Source: Pseudomonadota bacterium | Lineage (GTDB): Bacteria; Pseudomonadota; Gammaproteobacteria; Burkholderiales; Burkholderiaceae_C | NCBI GenBank assembly: GCA_052034395.1 | Contig: JBPOIP010000030.1 | Span: forward strand, 25,753 to 89,752 | Reading direction: 5' to 3' | Length of the DNA stretch: 64,000 nucleotides | Shown here: in pieces, positions 22,035 through 32,050 of the stretch | Layout of the letters: each line of letters starts with the position of its first letter | How positions within the stretch are numbered: the stretch's first letter is position 1 | The notes under the pieces: generated by a model | What the model saw: only the letters and a program-made list of their open reading frames with translations | Databases searched by the model: none | What the model was told of the DNA's origin: nothing | Translations under genes and position numbers: made by a program

Positions 22035-24128
22035 TCAGGCCTTCTCAACGTCTGCGTAACGCGCCATCAGTGCAACCTGGGCACCATGCAATGGGGTCTT
22101 TCCATCTCCCTGGAAGCGCCGGTATTTGCCGTCTGCACCCAGATCCCATGCGTCAACGCCATCGTGCAGGTAGGCCACCAGACACTCGTCAACCAGTCGC
22201 TGGCGTTGGACCGGGTCGGTCACGGGCCACGCCAGTTCCACGCGACGCACCATGTTGCGGTTCATCCAGTCGGCACTGGAGAGGTAAAGGTCTTCGTTAT
22301 CGCCTTCACGGAAATAGAAAACCCGCGAGTGCTCCAGAAACCGGCCAATCACCGAACGCACCCGAATGTTGTCAGTGTGCCCTGGCACCTGTGCGGGCAG
22401 CATGCAGGCGCCGCGCACAATCAGGTCGATCCGCACACCCTGGCGACCAGCCCGCATCAAACTGTGAATCAGCGCTTCGTCGGTCAGCGAGTTCATTTTG
22501 GCAACGATACGGGTAGCTTTGCCCCGGCTTGCTGCAGCGCCCAGTGCATCAATCCTTGCAATCATGTTGCGGTGCAGGTTGAAGGGTGCAAACCACAACT
22601 TGCGCAACCGCGGCAAACGACTTTGGCTTGCCAGATGCACAAACACATGCTCCATATCGGTTGTGAGCGCCGTGTCAGCTGTGATATGGCTTACATCGGT
22701 GTAAAGGCGTGCCGTGCGCGGGTTGTAATTGCCCGTCGACAGATGACCATAGCGTTTGAGGTTCTTGCCCTCGCGCCGCGTGATCAGCATCATCTTGGCG
22801 TGGGTTTTGAGGCCCACCACGCCATACAGCACCTGCGCTCCAATGGATTCGAGCATTTCGGCCCAGTTGATATTGGCTTCTTCGTCAAAGCGGGCCTTTA
22901 GCTCCACCACCACGGTAACTTCTTTGCCCAGACGCACGGCTTCGCGCAGCAGATCCATCAATTCGGAGTCGGGGCCAGTGCGGTAAATGGTTTGCTTGAT
23001 GGCCAATACATTCGGATCATTCACCGCTTCACGCAAAAGCCCCAGCACCCCATCAAAGCTCTCAAAGGGCTGGTGAATCAGAATGTCGCCCTGCTTCAAT
23101 TGCTCAAAAATGCTTTGTCCATTTGCCATTTGAGCAGGGTAGGACGCACGGTACGGTGTAAAACACAGGTCCGGGCGGTCAACCAGGTCAATAAGCTGGG
23201 TCAATCGCACCAGGTTCACCGGACCTGCCACGCGGTACAGGGCTTTGGCAGGCAAATCAAACTGTTTGAGCAAGAAATCAGACAGGTACTCGGAACAACC
23301 CGCCGACACCTCCAAGCGGACCGCCTGCCCGTAATGGCGGTGAACCAGCCCCTGACGCAGGGCCATGCGCAGGTTTTTGACATCGTCTTCGTCCACGGCC
23401 AGATCAGAATGCCGCGTCACACGGAACTGCGAGAACTGCCCCACCGAGCGCCCCGCAAACAGCTCAGCCAGGTGCGCGCGGATGATGCTCGACAGTGACA
23501 CGAACAGCAGGCGGTCACCCGAAACCTTGGCAGGCATGCGGATCAGGCGCGGCAGCACGCGCGGCACCTTGACGATGGCAATTTCATTCTCGCGACCAAA
23601 CGCATCCCGCCCGCCCAGACGCACGATAAAGTTCAGCGACTTGTTGGCGACTTGCGGAAACGGGTGGGATGGGTCCAGACCCACCGGAATCAGCAACGGG
23701 CGTACTTCCCGCTCGAAATACTGCTTGACCCAGTGGCGTTGCGCCGCATTGCGTTCGCCGTGGGAAATGATCTTGATGCCAAGTTTCTCAAACGCCGGCA
23801 TCAGTTTCTCGTTGTAAAGCGTGTATTGCCGCTCAACGATAGCGTGCACCGTTGCCGACAATCGCTCGAACGAGCCTACCGAAAACAGGCCCTTTCGTTC
23901 TTTGGCCTGATTGGCGGTCAGGTGCGGCTCGGCACGCACTTCAAAAAACTCGTCAAGATTGGATGAAACGATGCACAGATAGCGCAAACGCTCCAGCAGC
24001 GGAACATCATCGCGAACAGCCCAGTCCAGCACACGCTCATTGAAGGCAAGAATGCTGTGGTCGCGGTCCAGCAGATCGGGCGCCTCCAGGGGAGCCTGCA
24101 ATTTGGGGTTGCGAAGAAATGACAACAT
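22035..24128 (-). CDS. ppk1: Polyphosphate kinase 1
   Basis: SSNLDEFFEVR, SHPFPQV, IKQTIYRT, ELKARFDEEANI, KTHAK, GRFLEHSR, SSADWMNRN. Confidence 0.97.
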   Translation of the reverse strand: MLSFLRNPKLQAPLEAPDLLDRDHSILAFNERVLDWAVRDDVPLLERLRYLCIVSSNLDEFFEVRAEPHLTANQAKERKGLFSVGSFERLSATVHAIVERQYTLYNEKLMPAFEKLGIKIISHGERNAAQRHWVKQYFEREVRPLLIPVGLDPSHPFPQVANKSLNFIVRLGGRDAFGRENEIAIVKVPRVLPRLIRMPAKVSGDRLLFVSLSSIIRAHLAELFAGRSVGQFSQFRVTRHSDLAVDEDDVKNLRMALRQGLVHRHYGQAVRLEVSAGCSEYLSDFLLKQFDLPAKALYRVAGPVNLVRLTQLIDLVDRPDLCFTPYRASYPAQMANGQSIFEQLKQGDILIHQPFESFDGVLGLLREAVNDPNVLAIKQTIYRTGPDSELMDLLREAVRLGKEVTVVVELKARFDEEANINWAEMLESIGAQVLYGVVGLKTHAKMMLITRREGKNLKRYGHLSTGNYNPRTARLYTDVSHITADTALTTDMEHVFVHLASQSRLPRLRKLWFAPFNLHRNMIARIDALGAAASRGKATRIVAKMNSLTDEALIHSLMRAGRQGVRIDLIVRGACMLPAQVPGHTDNIRVRSVIGRFLEHSRVFYFREGDNEDLYLSSADWMNRNMVRRVELAWPVTDPVQRQRLVDECLVAYLHDGVDAWDLGADGKYRRFQGDGKTPLHGAQVALMARYADVEKA

Positions 24129-24166
24129 ATGCACGCCTTGACTATGACACAGGAGTGAAGAATTGT

Positions 24167-25249
24167 TTACGAAATTGATGACAGTGGTGTGACGTTTCCA
24201 TGAAGCAAGGGGCGCACATCCAGCAAGTTGCCCTTGCGCGCAGGAACCAGCTGATTTAGAAACAGTTGGGCGGCGGGACCCCAACCGAACGCCAACGCGC
24301 GCTCGCGGGCCAGGTGGCGTGGCACCGCAAGCGCCCCATACCAGGCGCGGGCCAGATCATCGTCCAGCACACCACCGGCTGGTGGTGACCCTACTACTTC
24401 CAGTGGTCCATCCACCGGGTAGGCCGCCACCGGTGTGCCGGTGGCCATTGCTTCTAGCATCACCAGACCAAAGGTTTCCGAGCGACTGGGCATGACAAAT
24501 ACATCAGCGGATGCATACACCTGGGCCAACACATCCCGCGGAAGTACGCCAAGCCAGTGCGCCTTGGGAAACCGCTGGCGCAATCCTTCCTCCAGAGGCC
24601 CGACACCACAAACAATTTTGGTCCCTGGGATGTCGAGCGTCAGAAAAGCCTCAATGTTCTTCTCGTAGGAAACGCGACCGACAAAGAGGGATATGGGACG
24701 GGCCAGCTGTCCCAGCGGTGCATAGGGCTGGGGTACCTCGCAATACGTGAACAGTTGCATGTCGACGCCATGCGTCCAGTTGCGCAGGTTGGGAAATCCT
24801 TTGGCCTGCAATATCTTCAGTACGTTGTGCGTAGGCACCAAGACGCCCGAGGAGTGCTTGTGAAAGTGCCGGAACAGCGCGTAGCCCATCCACAATGGAA
24901 CTTTCAACGCAGCTTTCAGTATTTCGGGAAACCGCGTGTGGTACGCCGTGGTGAACGCCAGAGCGCGCTTTATGCAATAGGCGCGTGCGGCCCAGCCCAG
25001 CGGACCTTCGGTGGCCAGATGAATGGCATCCGGCGCAATGGCATCGAGCCGGCGTGCCAGAGTCTTCGCAGGACGCACTGCAAGATCAATTCCGGCATAG
25101 CCCGGGCAAGGCCGGGTATCAAAAAATCCAGGATGTATGACTTCGACCTGGTGCCCCAGGGCTTGCATCTCGCGCACCAGCTCCACCAGGGTCGTGACAA
25201 CGCCATTGACCTGTGGCTGCCATGCATCGGTCACCAGGACCAGCTTCAT
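24167..25249 (-). CDS. GT4 glycosyltransferase, Agt-like (predicted glyco/glucuronosyl-DAG synthase)
   Basis: VTDAWQPQVNGVVTTL, IHLATEGPLG, FVGRVSYEKNIEAFL, SRSETFGLVMLEAMATG; 4-nt overlap with the plcP-like gene. Confidence 0.85.
   Translation of the reverse strand: MKLVLVTDAWQPQVNGVVTTLVELVREMQALGHQVEVIHPGFFDTRPCPGYAGIDLAVRPAKTLARRLDAIAPDAIHLATEGPLGWAARAYCIKRALAFTTAYHTRFPEILKAALKVPLWMGYALFRHFHKHSSGVLVPTHNVLKILQAKGFPNLRNWTHGVDMQLFTYCEVPQPYAPLGQLARPISLFVGRVSYEKNIEAFLTLDIPGTKIVCGVGPLEEGLRQRFPKAHWLGVLPRDVLAQVYASADVFVMPSRSETFGLVMLEAMATGTPVAAYPVDGPLEVVGSPPAGGVLDDDLARAWYGALAVPRHLARERALAFGWGPAAQLFLNQLVPARKGNLLDVRPLLHGNVTPLSSIS
24178..24195 (-). promoter_or_regulatory. Pho box upstream of ppk1, inside the 3' end of the glycosyltransferase gene
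   Basis: Minus strand ACGTCAC-ACCA-CTGTCAT, then 10 nt, then AACAAT. Confidence 0.6.
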
Positions 25250-27815: not shown

Positions 27816-29327
27816 ATGGCCAGCGAAAAGATAACTGCGGTTCCCTTTGAGGAAATTGAACTCAAGCTTTGCCTCCCCTGTGCAGACCCTTCCATTCTGG
27901 AACCACTGCTGGTGGGGCTGCCCCTGCTAGCGCACTGCAAGGCCAGACGCGAACACCTGCACAACATCTATTTCGACACCCCGGACGATCTGCTGAACCG
28001 CCAGCGCACTGCCTTGCGCCTTCGCCGAATAGGCAGTGCGAAACAGCCGGTGTGGTTGCAAACGCTGAAGATGGGCGGCAACGGAGACTCGGCGCTGAGC
28101 CAGCGTGGCGAATGGGAGACACGGGTTTCCAAAGCCACACTGGAGTTTGGCATGCTGGAGGCGACCCCTTGGGCCCAAATGGATCCCGACGGCAGCCTGA
28201 TGCGCGCTCTGACGCCGCGATTTACCACTGACTTCACCCGAACCCTCTGGACCATTCGCAACCGCGATGACGCAAGCGTGGTTGAAATCGCCCTCGATCG
28301 GGGACACATTGATGTAAACGGCCAGAACACGCCGATTTGTGAGCTGGAGCTTGAACTCAAGGCGGGCGAGCCATCCGCCCTGTTTGCCATAGCTCGCCAG
28401 ATCGCCAGCGTGCTTGCCGTCATGCCACTGGCTGCCAGCAAGGCACAGCGCGGTTTTGCATTGGCAAACCACACGCTGGATCAACCGACACGTGCCAGGC
28501 CACCCGATCTGTCAACGGAGATGTCGCAATCCGAGGCGGCTCGTTGCGTGCTGCGTGACGTGCTGCACCATTTCAGCGCCAACCTCCACACTCTGCTCAC
28601 GTCAGACGACCCGGAGGTGGTGCACCAGACCCGTATTGCATGGCGACGCATGAAAGCGGCGCTCAGTGTTTTCAGGAAAACTCCGCTGGTTCAGGATGCA
28701 CCGACCTGGCACGCGTTGAAGCCTTTGCTGGATGGACTGGGGCGCTTGCGCGATCTGGAAGTTGCCAGCCTGCAAACCTTGCCCATGCTCGCCAATGCGT
28801 ATGTTGGCGCAAGTTCCAAACGAAAACAGCATTGGCATGCGCTGCAGGTCACGTTGGCACAGGCTGCAGCCAACCAACTCCAATGGGTGCGCGGTGCACT
28901 CCACAGCCCGGGCGCTGGAGGCACATTGCTGGCACTGACCGAATGGCTGGAAACCAAGCCTGCAGGTGCGCAATCAGGCGGCACGAAACGCAAGAATAAG
29001 GCCGCGTTGAGGCCGTGGGTGCGTCAGCGCATGGAGCGCCTGCGCGACCAAATCAAGCGCACACTGAAAAAAACGCCCAACGCCGCCAACCTGCATCGTG
29101 CCCGTCTATTGGCCAAACGGCTGCGCTACAGCGTTGAAGCATTTCGATCGGTACTGCCCAAACGGCGTGCACAACGGTGGCACCGACAGGCAAACCACCT
29201 GCAAAGCACCATCGGATCCGAGCGCGACCTGCAACAGGCGCTCGCCATTGCCAGGCAGCTCAAGGCACATTCTTCCGTGCTGAAATTCCTGAATGTGGTG
29301 TCGCTCGGGCGGCACCACGCGCGTTGA
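27816..29327 (+). CDS. CYTH + CHAD domain protein (triphosphate tunnel metalloenzyme with polyP-binding domain)
   Basis: EIELKL ExExK motif, YFDTP, ALRLRR, ICELELELK; CHAD motifs VHQTRIAWRR, LGRLRDLEV, LHRARLLAKRLRY. Confidence 0.9.
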   Translation: MASEKITAVPFEEIELKLCLPCADPSILEPLLVGLPLLAHCKARREHLHNIYFDTPDDLLNRQRTALRLRRIGSAKQPVWLQTLKMGGNGDSALSQRGEWETRVSKATLEFGMLEATPWAQMDPDGSLMRALTPRFTTDFTRTLWTIRNRDDASVVEIALDRGHIDVNGQNTPICELELELKAGEPSALFAIARQIASVLAVMPLAASKAQRGFALANHTLDQPTRARPPDLSTEMSQSEAARCVLRDVLHHFSANLHTLLTSDDPEVVHQTRIAWRRMKAALSVFRKTPLVQDAPTWHALKPLLDGLGRLRDLEVASLQTLPMLANAYVGASSKRKQHWHALQVTLAQAAANQLQWVRGALHSPGAGGTLLALTEWLETKPAGAQSGGTKRKNKAALRPWVRQRMERLRDQIKRTLKKTPNAANLHRARLLAKRLRYSVEAFRSVLPKRRAQRWHRQANHLQSTIGSERDLQQALAIARQLKAHSSVLKFLNVVSLGRHHAR

Positions 29328-29333
29328 ACAGCC

Positions 29334-29444
29334 TCACCCGCGCAATCGCCAGGCCTGATAGCGGGAGCGCTGCAGCGCAAACAGTTCCACCAGTCCCCGG
29401 GCGACGCTGCCGAGCAAGGCAAGATGCCGCACCGTCTTATTCAC
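29334..29444 (-). CDS. Putative 36-aa small protein
   Basis: GTG start with GGAG RBS, overlapping the stop of the upstream sORF; MNKTVRHLALLGSVARGLVELFALQRSRYQAWRLRG. Confidence 0.45.
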   Translation of the reverse strand: MNKTVRHLALLGSVARGLVELFALQRSRYQAWRLRG

Positions 29445-29568
29445 CGGGGTACTCCACGACTGGCTGCGGCAATCGGACGGATCGCCCGGACGACAATCCC
29501 AGGGTAACCCAACCGTCATCAAACAGGGCGTCGAGCTTTTTCTGCAATCCAAACAGCTTCCACAGCAT
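29437..29568 (-). CDS. Putative 43-aa small protein (not in the ORF track)
   Basis: GGGAG RBS plus ATG; MLWKLFGLQKKLDALFDDGWVTLGLSSGRSVRLPQPVVEYPGE. Confidence 0.45.
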   Translation of the reverse strand: MLWKLFGLQKKLDALFDDGWVTLGLSSGRSVRLPQPVVEYPGE

Positions 29569-29602
29569 GGCGCACTCCCAATTTCATGGTTAATGAATTG
29601 GT

Positions 29603-29636
29603 AATCTAGCTGTCAACTGTGACAGTTTTGAGTCAA
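29603..29636 (-). promoter_or_regulatory. Pho-type promoter candidate for the two sORFs
   Basis: Minus strand TTGACTC-AAAA-CTGTCAC, then 10 nt, then TAGATT; contains the palindrome CTGTCA-ACTG-TGACAG (29610-29625). Confidence 0.5.
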
Positions 29637-29746
29637 TCGCACATACCCTGCCACAGGGGTATGGCATGACGAAATGTTTGGCGTTGAAAGCTATGCTTGG
29701 GCAATAGCGCAAAAGAATCTTTTCGAGCAACCATGACCATGCCTTC

Positions 29747-30757
29747 ATGAACCATCTACCCGAGCTCGAAGCGCTTGAGCGCATCATTGACCTCGGCGGG
29801 ACGCAACTGGACGTGAATGTTGTGGACCGCGTGACACCGCACACAGGCGCCGATTTACCGCTGTATGCCATCCGCATGGGCAACCCAACGCCTGACGTTC
29901 CGGCCATCGGTTACTTTGGTGGTGTGCACGGACTCGAGCGCATTGGGGCCGAGGTGGTGATTGCCTTTTTGCACAGCCTGGTGATGCGACTGCAGTGGGA
30001 TACCACGCTGCACCAGCAACTTCAATCCGTGCGACTGATCTTCATGCCCATTGTCAATCCAGGGGGCATGCTGATGGGCACGCGCGCAAATCCGCACGGC
30101 GTCGACCTCATGCGCAACGCGCCAGTCGATGCGGTCGACACGGTTCCATTTCTGGTTGGTGGCCAGCGCATCAGTTCCGGCCTGCCCTGGTACCGCGGTA
30201 AACCGGACGCACCCATGGAGGCTGAGAACCAGGCACTATGCGACTTGGTCAACGCCGAATTGTTGAGCCGCAAGTTCAGCATGGCACTGGATTGTCACTC
30301 TGGCTTTGGCACACGTGACCGCATCTGGTTTCCGTACGCACACACCCGCAAGCCCATCGCCCATCTGGCTGAGATGCAGGCCTTGCGTGACGTGTTTTTG
30401 CAGACCTACAGCCACCACGCTTACGTGTTTGAACCGCAAAGCCTGCAATATCTGGCCCATGGTGATGTCTGGGACCACCTGTATCTGCAGGCAAGCAGTG
30501 ATGCGAATCGCGTGTTTTTACCACTGACGCTCGAAATGGGGTCCTGGCTATGGATCAAGAAAAATCCGCGCCAGATGTTTTCCCTGAAAGGCATATTCAA
30601 CCCGCTGATTGAGCACCGTCAGCACCGGGTATTGCGTCGCCACTTGTCGCTTCTGGACTTCCTGGCGCGCGCCGCCTGCAGCCAGGAGCGCTGGACGCCA
30701 ACCGCAAGCACCCGGGCAAAACTGCATACCGAGGCGCTGAATAATTGGTACGCATAG
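29747..30757 (+). CDS. M14-family zinc carboxypeptidase-like protein
   Basis: GGVHGLE (HxxE), RANPHGVDLMRN, LDCHSG, TLEMG. Confidence 0.8.
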   Translation: MNHLPELEALERIIDLGGTQLDVNVVDRVTPHTGADLPLYAIRMGNPTPDVPAIGYFGGVHGLERIGAEVVIAFLHSLVMRLQWDTTLHQQLQSVRLIFMPIVNPGGMLMGTRANPHGVDLMRNAPVDAVDTVPFLVGGQRISSGLPWYRGKPDAPMEAENQALCDLVNAELLSRKFSMALDCHSGFGTRDRIWFPYAHTRKPIAHLAEMQALRDVFLQTYSHHAYVFEPQSLQYLAHGDVWDHLYLQASSDANRVFLPLTLEMGSWLWIKKNPRQMFSLKGIFNPLIEHRQHRVLRRHLSLLDFLARAACSQERWTPTASTRAKLHTEALNNWYA

Positions 30758-30759
30758 CC

Positions 30760-31539
30760 ATGGCAATGTGGATTTTCTTGAGAGGATTGAGTCGTGAAGC
30801 GTCACATTGGGGAGGATTCGCAGTCGAATTTGAACGCGCCATCCCGCAGGCACAGGTTGCGGCCCTGGATTTGCCTGGCAACGGCGCCCTGAGGCACATT
30901 GCCAGTCCGCTGTCCATTGCACAGTTGGTCATTCATTGCCGCGAAGAACTTCAACGCAGAGGAATACCGCCGCCCTACCATGTGCTTGCCGTGTCCATGG
31001 GCGCCATGGTCGCTGCACAATGGGCTTGTGATGCGCCGGCCGAGATCGCCGCTGCCGTGATGATCAACACGAGCTTTAAGCCCTTTAGCCCATTTCATGC
31101 CCGCCTGCGACCGGAAAACTATGGCCGCTTGCTGCGCATGATGCTGCCGGGTACCTCGGCACAGACGCTGGAAACCACGGTACTGGAACTCACCAGCAAC
31201 GCCCCCAAATGCCATAAAAACGTGCTCCCGCAATGGGTTGGCATACGGCAATCGAACCCAGTGACTCTCTCCAATACCCTGCGTCAACTTGTGGCAGCAG
31301 CGCGCTATCGTGCACCTGCCCGTCGACCCGAAAGTCCGGTTTTACTATTGGGAAGCAGCCGCGACAAACTGGTCAATGTCCAGTGCATGCACGACATCGC
31401 ACGGCACTGGAATTGCGCTCTGGCCCTGCATCCGCAAGCAGGCCATGATCTGCCGCTCGATGACCCGCAATGGGTCATTCAGAAGGTTTACGAATGGCTG
31501 ACAGAAAACGTTGCCTTCAGTCCAGCCACTTTTGCATGA
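30760..31539 (+). CDS. Alpha/beta-fold hydrolase
   Basis: LDLPGNG, AVSMGAM nucleophile elbow, RDKLV, AGHDLPLDDP; starts 2 nt after the M14 stop. Confidence 0.85.
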   Translation: MAMWIFLRGLSREASHWGGFAVEFERAIPQAQVAALDLPGNGALRHIASPLSIAQLVIHCREELQRRGIPPPYHVLAVSMGAMVAAQWACDAPAEIAAAVMINTSFKPFSPFHARLRPENYGRLLRMMLPGTSAQTLETTVLELTSNAPKCHKNVLPQWVGIRQSNPVTLSNTLRQLVAAARYRAPARRPESPVLLLGSSRDKLVNVQCMHDIARHWNCALALHPQAGHDLPLDDPQWVIQKVYEWLTENVAFSPATFA

Positions 31540-31999
31540 ACTGCGCCTGCCCCATGGCCGGGTCAAGTTCATAGTTGGCGAAACCCAGGCGCCGGTAGAG
31601 TCGTTGCGCAGCTGCATTGCCTTGCAAAACCTCCAGCGTCAGCTTGCATGCACTACGCTCACGCGCCATCTCCTGCACGAGCAACAGCATTTTTTCTGCG
31701 ACACCTTGCCCACGATACCCGGGCAACACTGCAACATCGTGCACATTGACCAATGGGCGGCAGGCAAAGGTCGAAAAGCCTTCGATGCAGTTCACCAAAC
31801 CCACCGGCATATCGGCATCAAAAGCCAGCACGCTATAGGCTTGCGGCCGGGCCGCGAGTGCGGCCACCAGGTGACTCCTGGAAAACTCGCTCAAGGGGTG
31901 ACCGCCGCCCATGGGATCACGCGCATAGGCATCCAGTACCGCGACAAGCGCTGCAGCGTGTGCCGGGTTGGAATAGTCGGCGCGACAGATGTACACCAT
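31517..31999 (-). CDS. GNAT family N-acetyltransferase
   Basis: NVHDVAVLPGYRGQGVA acetyl-CoA motif, LEVLQGN..AQRLYRRLGF. Confidence 0.88.
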   Translation of the reverse strand: MVYICRADYSNPAHAAALVAVLDAYARDPMGGGHPLSEFSRSHLVAALAARPQAYSVLAFDADMPVGLVNCIEGFSTFACRPLVNVHDVAVLPGYRGQGVAEKMLLLVQEMARERSACKLTLEVLQGNAAAQRLYRRLGFANYELDPAMGQAQFMQKWLD

Positions 32000-32050
32000 A
32001 AATACTGCGTGGTTATTGCCGCATGGAAGCTGGGGTGACCAACTGCCGCC

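Follow-up and report, generated by a model that had tools for sequence, protein, structure and literature searches.

Does the 420-nt gap between two genes in the genome of a Pseudomonadota bacterium conceal two further genes and, if so, what switches them on, and with which partner do their products act? The window in which this question arises is a 64,000-nt stretch of contig JBPOIP010000030.1 (positions 25,753 to 89,752 of the forward strand; GenBank assembly GCA_052034395.1), assigned to the Burkholderiaceae_C, and coordinates below are positions within it. The gap is flanked by a CYTH-CHAD gene (27816-29327, plus strand) and an M14 zinc carboxypeptidase gene (29747-30757, plus strand), and both small open reading frames (ORFs) within it, here called ORF1 and ORF2, lie on the minus strand. 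Annotation usually overlooks small proteins, and few have been tied to a defined regulon. The answer that we consider likely is that ORF1 and ORF2 form a genuine two-gene small-protein operon with a PhoB-type promoter, most likely switched on under phosphate limitation, and that the pair would modulate a membrane-associated partner.

Results

Both frames are conserved as protein-coding genes

ORF1 (29568-29437, minus strand) starts with ATG, encodes 43 amino acids and reads MLWKLFGLQKKLDALFDDGWVTLGLSSGRSVRLPQPVVEYPGE, while ORF2 (29444-29334, minus strand) starts with GTG, encodes 36 amino acids and reads (V/M)NKTVRHLALLGSVARGLVELFALQRSRYQAWRLRG. Each has a Shine-Dalgarno motif: GGGAG at 29575-29579 (minus strand), 6 nt 5' of the ORF1 ATG, its GGAG being conserved in the intergenic alignment, and GGAG at 29452-29455 (minus strand), within the last codons of ORF1 and 7 nt 5' of the ORF2 GTG, with a comparable motif preceding ORF2 in most loci. 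The frames share an 8-nt stop/start overlap, GTGAATAA (29437-29444, minus strand), which would couple their translation. A preliminary description of this DNA had proposed two real, translationally coupled small-protein genes with these ribosome-binding sites and this overlap, and the features are all to be read in the sequence as it gave them.

A DNA search of 40 relatives returned matches in same-genus genomes only, at 67-80% identity, against which protein identity reaches up to 90% in the conserved parts. Across 34-36 independent loci (numbered L0xx) the frames, start codons and coupling are kept, and substitutions are of the codon type in both frames. For ORF1, the ratio of non-synonymous to synonymous change (pN/pS) over the first 25 codons in 36 loci is 0.155, compared with 0.35-4.6 in the other five frames, and column entropy in the same loci is 0.47, 0.16 and 1.00 at codon positions 1, 2 and 3; for the ORF2 core, again in 36 loci, pN/pS is 0.36, compared with 0.97 and 2.0 in the other two frames. 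Hence both ORFs are under purifying selection as proteins. Judged by these patterns, together with the conserved starts and coupling, the proposal of two real genes is borne out: ORF1 and ORF2 are genuine protein-coding genes, mostly missed by annotation pipelines. A 72-amino-acid, TTG-started extension of the ORF2 frame, called by the ORF tool, was rejected, as stops break it in many relatives.

ORF1 is present in 71 of the 121 genomes of the genus, most carriers being metagenome-assembled genomes, and in seven of the 201 sampled genera of the family; an order-wide sample beyond the family gave only seven ORF1 matches, all at chance level (E 0.003-0.008). A scan of species-representative genomes found 35 loci, nearly all in Rhodoferax metagenome-assembled genomes, with others in Candidatus Aalborgicola and Hydrogenophaga, and the cultured Acidovorax soli (GCA_014207955.1) carries both ORF1 and the module. 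In a large protein collection, 44 clusters of ORF1 (at 90% identity) and nine of ORF2 are present, all unnamed or "hypothetical" and free of Pfam domains. When 1.84 billion representatives were searched exhaustively with a profile, ORF1 yielded 73 clusters at 50% identity, stand-alone and unfused proteins of 29-90 amino acids; the sole long match, of 1068 amino acids, consists of 15 short stretches of a repetitive protein. Searches of Pfam, NCBIfam and the PDB gave no match for ORF1, for ORF2 or for any of 58 scanned members of the families. By these searches, the two are uncatalogued small-protein families of Rhodoferax-type bacteria.

The two genes are inherited as a pair

In 34 of the 36 loci, a profile hidden Markov model search places ORF2 next to ORF1 and on its strand. 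Where it follows ORF1 (30 loci, the window included), the genes overlap by 8 nt in 15 cases and are separated by a gap of 3-4 nt in 12, such that the junction type, represented by GTGAATAA in the window, is conserved across loci in the manner of a translationally coupled operon. Gene order is swapped in four loci (L032, L037, L038 and L040), with the start of ORF1 lying 1-22 nt from the ORF2 stop; that adjacency outlasts this change of order argues for a joint function. Complete genomes of the genus hold more diverged pairs, and in A. soli genes of 43 and 57 amino acids overlap by 35 nt. Comparison across the loci therefore demonstrates the linkage of the two genes, with L043 and L045 carrying ORF1 without ORF2 and without the M14 gene.

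Two individual loci have further neighbours of their own. In A. soli (L086:4200-4832) a gene for an HlyIII/PAQR-family membrane protein begins 25 nt after ORF2 on the same strand, and may be on the same transcript. In one Rhodoferax metagenome-assembled genome (L043:5400-6524) the lone ORF1 has a Pho box and lies directly 5' of a gene for a phnC-like ATPase of the ATP-binding cassette (ABC) type, divergent from olsB.

A weak PhoB-type promoter is predicted at the head of the operon

A Pho box is defined as two 7-nt direct repeats resembling CTGTCAT/C and 4 nt apart, giving an 11-nt periodicity (PMC4415409). Four sequence properties of a Pho promoter are found upstream of ORF1. Firstly, TTGACTC-AAAA-CTGTCAC (29619-29636, minus strand) comprises two 7-nt direct repeats (29636-29630 and 29625-29619) 11 nt apart. 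Secondly, the repeats replace a -35 element, and the -10 hexamer TAGATT (29603-29608, minus strand) lies at the usual distance, exactly 10 nt 3' of the box, with a 34-nt stretch from it to the ORF1 ATG; TAnnnT is kept at this position in a 29-locus alignment. The same geometry is seen in the genome's pstS promoter (TTGTCAC-ATAG-CTGTCAC-N10-TAAAGT) and the divergent promoter of a fasciclin gene (CTGTCAC-ACGC-CTGTCAC-N10-TACGCT), and N10-TAnnnT also follows 43 boxes from 24 relatives. A pattern expressing this geometry matches just these three sites in the 4.55-Mb genome, although it was written with the site in view and is not an independent test.

Thirdly, the box ranks highly under a matrix that was blind to it. 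This 18-nt matrix was trained on the 43 pstS or divergent boxes of 24 other genomes of the genus, the window site not being included, and gives the window box 16.0 bits, placing it 14th among 9.09 million genome positions. A 34-nt version that included the spacer and the -10 was dropped as less useful, being dominated by pstS-specific spacer sequence. Fourthly, the box is conserved: in nearly all loci the best-scoring position lies 66-69 nt 5' of the first ATG. In the loci with swapped gene order a better box, CTGACAT-N4-CTGTCAC-N10-TACCTT, stands ahead of ORF2, and A. soli has CTGACGC-AAAA-CCGTCAC-N10-TATCTT; the box is thus found at the head of the operon, at a fixed distance, whichever gene comes first.

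The Pho-type promoter of the preliminary description has therefore held up, having the anatomy of the organism's own Pho boxes and being conserved across relatives. Taken on these DNA motifs, the site is a weak but genuine PhoB-type promoter that PhoB would be expected to bind. Since the promoter is of this type, the operon is most likely activated by phosphate limitation, an induction that we infer from the motifs only. A palindrome, CTGTCA-cagt-TGACAG (29610-29625, no strand assigned), overlaps the second repeat of the box together with the spacer; it is present in the window as had been described, but is kept in the nearest relatives alone, in L023 and partly in L013-L015, is absent from the other loci, and is probably not a separate functional site.

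The conserved islands of the intergenic alignment are the box, the -10, a TTCAAC block and the GGAG. A further block at 29644-29669 (CATGCCA...GGGTATG) is conserved, and contains a 7-bp inverted repeat in the window that is not consistently found in relatives. The block CTATGCT (29691-29697, plus strand) is conserved at 90% or more in 29 intergenic regions and occurs in A. soli too; the TATGCT within it is likely to be the -10 of the divergent M14 gene. A generic scan for sigma-70 promoters and terminators found nothing at the locus, as expected for a promoter that depends on an activator. A scan of 28800-30200 against Rfam returned no match beyond a meaningless 13-bit viral one. Downstream, the stop codons of ORF2 and the convergent CYTH-CHAD gene are only 6 nt apart (29325-29336), and no terminator is predicted on either strand; hence the two transcripts probably overlap in antisense at their 3' ends.

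The operon lies in a region rich in such sites. The window holds pstSCAB-phoU-phoBR, and the neighbourhood of the locus is pst-phoBR-ppk-olsB-plcP. The 96-kb contig carries eight of the 25 best matches to the Pho matrix in the 4.55-Mb genome, at about 12804 (minus), 12888 (plus), 18176 (plus), 20941 (minus), 24195 (minus), 29636 (minus), 36804 (plus) and 63007 (plus), making the window a dense Pho island of pst-phoU-phoBR, the fasciclin gene, a pyruvate-kinase-like gene, ppk, olsB-plcP-GT4 genes and the small ORFs. The ppk box, ACGTCAC-ACCA-CTGTCAT-N10-AACAAT (24162-24195, minus strand), lies inside the 3' end of a GT4 gene and scores 17.3 bits, seventh in the genome; an ATG in frame at 24128 points to a true ppk start 52 codons 3' of the TTG chosen by the ORF tool.

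The peptides are predicted to be a soluble helix and a membrane helix

The N-terminus of ORF1, MLWKLLGLQKKLDALFDDGWV.LG, is almost invariant, forming a near-invariant helix of 24 residues followed by a free tail. Of its residues 1-20, 15 are invariant, and the consensus ends after residue 27; the tail varies in length and sequence even among close relatives, and is often acidic in distant members. AlphaFold2 predicts helices at residues 3-17 and 20-25 and a disordered tail, with a mean predicted local distance difference test score (pLDDT) of 65. On a helical wheel, a leucine stripe (L5, L8, L12, L15/F16 and L23) and an acidic patch (D13, D17 and D18) are apparent. With a best Kyte-Doolittle mean of 0.5, ORF1 is too weakly hydrophobic to span a membrane as a single helix.

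ORF2 has a short variable N-terminus, a 17-residue hydrophobic segment (best Kyte-Doolittle mean 1.75-2.2) and then QRSRYQAWRLR, with the polybasic C-terminal tail QRSRYQAWRLRG and a net charge of +5 or +6. G17, A23, L24 and Q25 are invariant and E20, R26 and R28 nearly so. AlphaFold2 predicts one continuous helix over residues 2-35 (pLDDT 87). ORF2 hence has the size and build of a small membrane protein, with at most 50 residues and one hydrophobic helix of membrane-spanning length. Both peptides had been described as amphipathic; for ORF2 this understates the case, as its segment is hydrophobic enough for a transmembrane helix.

A divergent M14 carboxypeptidase operon is the constant neighbour

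The gene divergent from the pair, at 29747-30757 on the plus strand, encodes an M14 zinc carboxypeptidase (Pfam Peptidase_M14, E = 3.9e-17) with an HxxE zinc motif (HGLE) and, from its first residues as read from the DNA, no obvious signal peptide; a sequence search of the PDB did not place the protein in any characterised subfamily. It is the first gene of an uncharacterised operon (29747-32038) that continues with an alpha/beta hydrolase and a 175-amino-acid ORF without a Pfam or NCBIfam match. A divergent M14 gene stands beside the pair in 33 of the 36 loci, usually followed by the alpha/beta hydrolase gene, and A. soli has the same arrangement. Across the 121 genomes of the genus the M14 gene is found in 65: 60 hold both ORF1 and M14, 11 ORF1 only, five M14 only and 45 neither, one of the genomes with M14 only retaining ORF2. 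Where both are present they are adjacent in 56 of 60 genomes, divergent in all 56, with a median gap of about 170 nt. Comparison of these genomes establishes that the module is linked to M14.

The flank downstream of ORF2 is more changeable. About half of the loci have a convergent CYTH-CHAD gene, and elsewhere its place is taken by olsB, AzlCD, MarR, an M24 peptidase, GDPD (twice), a GGDEF protein or the phnC-like ATPase. The preliminary description had offered PhoR, PhoU, PPK or the CYTH-CHAD enzyme as partners; none of these specific partners is supported, and adjacency to the CYTH-CHAD gene is not conserved. The M14 carboxypeptidase operon, which that description did not mention, is the only constant neighbour, and is a better candidate than any of the four.

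Discussion

How these elements might work together can be set out as a sequence of steps. Phosphorylated PhoB would bind the tandem repeats in place of a -35 element and recruit RNA polymerase to TAGATT, 10 nt downstream, giving a transcript whose leader of about 28 nt would bear GGGAG and the ATG of ORF1. Ribosomes ending ORF1 at TAA would restart at the GTG 5 nt upstream, within the overlap, and hence the two peptides would be made together. ORF2 would enter the inner membrane as a single helix bearing the conserved Gly and Glu, with its Arg-rich tail on the cytoplasmic face, and ORF1 would form a helix, soluble or peripheral, marked by a single leucine stripe and an acidic patch. By analogy with other stress-induced small membrane proteins, ORF1 may dock on ORF2, and the pair may modulate a membrane-associated partner during phosphate starvation. 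The divergent operon of cytoplasmic M14 carboxypeptidase and alpha/beta hydrolase, being co-inherited with the module, would be the best candidate for a functional partner.

A more specific version of this mechanism, which we regard as unlikely, is that the peptides and the M14/hydrolase operon form one unit, in which ORF2, with ORF1 as its adaptor, would recruit, activate or restrain the cytoplasmic enzyme at the inner membrane during phosphate starvation. Envelope or lipid remodelling, beside the olsB-plcP genes, is a possible setting for such a unit. If true, this would be a small-protein-controlled enzyme module without a described counterpart.

Several results weigh against a phosphate-controlled operon working with a membrane-associated partner. 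Firstly, a plain count of mismatches to CTGTCAC-N4-CTGTCAC is at chance level, with 299 sites at three mismatches compared with 384 expected; as this count was uninformative, the matrix was trained on relatives' boxes instead. Secondly, the box is a weak one under that matrix, its score falling below the training range of 18.1-30.3 bits, and the scores in relatives are 3-16 bits. Thirdly, the second repeat is exact, but the first half-site, TTGACTC, matches at four of seven positions and has TGAC instead of TGTC. Fourthly, the co-occurrence of ORF1 and M14 has a Fisher's p of 4e-17 that is uncorrected for shared ancestry, and 11 genomes have ORF1 but not M14. Fifthly, RNA folding 3' of ORF2 gives z = -0.74, with no terminator. 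Finally, codon 16 of the window's ORF2 (29397-29399, CGG) places an Arg in the middle of the helix (SVARGLVEL), where 27 of 33 homologues, some of them about 95% identical, carry Trp (TGG) instead; the Arg may be genuine and harmful to the peptide, or it may stem from faulty assembly.

The low scores in relatives and the divergent half-site favour another reading, in which the proteins are real but the repeat would be bound by another regulator of the OmpR/PhoB family, or would be a control site shared with the M14 operon, putting the module outside the Pho regulon. Across loci the first half-site reads TTGAC(T/G)C, consistently different from the TTGTCAC consensus of pstS boxes in the genus; no gene is linked to the pair more strongly than M14, which has no known role in the Pho response; and the box is only about 55 nt from the conserved promoter block of the M14 gene. 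We give this reading a small but appreciable chance. What tells against it is that the second half-site, the A that follows, the N10 spacing and TAnnnT are identical to those of the genus pstS promoters, that the box ranks 14th in the genome under a matrix that had not seen it, and that it faces the small ORFs and tracks the head of their operon. Furthermore, several genomes have the pair and pstS on one contig, 3-17 kb apart (17 kb in the window), and the pair recurs beside GDPD or phnC.

A distinctly more improbable reading takes ORF1 for a precursor or substrate peptide, processed by the M14 carboxypeptidase and the alpha/beta hydrolase, with ORF2 as a membrane partner for export or immunity, in a peptide-signal system or one resembling ribosomally synthesised and post-translationally modified peptides (RiPPs). 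The pattern of a conserved leader and a variable core is indeed present, the 24 N-terminal residues being invariant and the tail variable even among close relatives; the tails of distant members are acidic; and co-inheritance with the carboxypeptidase and hydrolase is tight across the genus. Yet no recognised modification enzyme, leader-cleavage motif, C39/ABC exporter or pattern of Cys, Ser and Thr was found, nor is there a YcaO, radical S-adenosylmethionine (rSAM) or LanM protein among the neighbours. For part of the tail the overlapping ORF2 start is the only constraint, the M14 protein shows no signal peptide when its first residues are read, and ORF1 is kept in 11 genomes without M14.

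Very improbable is a toxin-antidote or growth-arrest module, in which ORF2 would damage membranes as a small toxin and be neutralised by the co-translated ORF1. Short and hydrophobic, ORF2 carries a strong positive charge (+5 or +6), ORF1 is acidic where ORF2 is basic, and strict co-expression is combined with a flexible gene order. However, the module is single-copy, syntenic and vertically inherited, is without a mobile-element context and is regulated by a promoter of the nutrient type, and the occurrence of ORF1 without ORF2 in L043 and L045 is the reverse of addiction logic. Finally, that the ORFs are chance open frames conserved on account of a non-coding RNA or promoter elements has next to no chance of being right, for although such frames are frequent in GC-rich DNA at this size, and a longer frame on the opposite strand (29177-29593) is open too, this explanation is refuted as far as sequence comparison can do so by substitutions that cluster at the third codon positions of exactly the ORF1 and ORF2 frames, by conserved starts, Shine-Dalgarno motifs and stop/start coupling, by protein identity far above DNA identity, and by the lack of an Rfam match or unusual fold.

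The phosphate-controlled pair that we prefer has partial parallels among known systems. Its promoter resembles pstS-type Pho promoters of Escherichia coli in having two 7-nt repeats of 11-nt periodicity that replace the -35, followed 10 nt later by the -10 of the genus, but differs from canonical Pho promoters in its degenerate upstream repeat (TTGACTC) and in having a single box rather than several. Among the closest counterparts of ORF2 in description is YoaI of E. coli, a PhoB-induced membrane protein of 34 amino acids that acts on EnvZ via a conserved Glu (PMC11429745). Both are single-helix membrane peptides of about 35 residues, as predicted for ORF2, with a PhoB-type promoter and a conserved acidic residue in or near the helix, which in YoaI is needed for binding its partner. 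They are likened by description, not by sequence, and differ in that YoaI is a single gene, whereas ORF2 would be co-translated with a second, soluble peptide. Unlike YoaI, ORF2 is also confined to a few genera of one betaproteobacterial family, and has no Pfam or NCBIfam match.

A second comparison concerns the small DUF1127 proteins (YjiS and the Agrobacterium SDPs), which bind PhoR (PMC12501420). These share with the present peptides a length of less than 50 amino acids and, as we propose for our pair, a tie to phosphate homeostasis and action through protein-protein contact. The sequences also look loosely alike to the eye, with an Arg-rich stretch followed by L-x-x-L-D-x-x-L-x-D-x-G-L-S. 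Membership of DUF1127 (PF06568) was rejected, since no Pfam match was found for the window proteins or for 25 + 33 family members at E values up to 10. DUF1127 proteins also differ in being soluble products of single genes, with no known control by a Pho box.

MgtS, MgrB, SafA, PmrR and AcrZ are small membrane proteins that modulate transporters and kinases. ORF2 resembles them in size class and in its predicted single helix; they are induced by two-component regulons and feed back on membrane proteins. To our knowledge all are single peptides, and none is known as a coupled pair of a soluble and a membrane peptide, or is tied to an M14 peptidase operon.

The significance of these findings is that two families combine clean comparative evidence of translation with PhoB as their predicted regulator and an uncharacterised M14 peptidase as a specific candidate partner. 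The cultured carrier A. soli makes the predictions directly testable. The clade is narrow, making this a solid lead rather than a surprise. The carrier genus is a common inhabitant of freshwater, groundwater and wastewater, habitats in which phosphate often limits growth. If confirmed, the operon would extend the occurrence of small membrane peptides in Pho regulons, the theme represented by YoaI, to the betaproteobacteria, in a version that employs two peptides.

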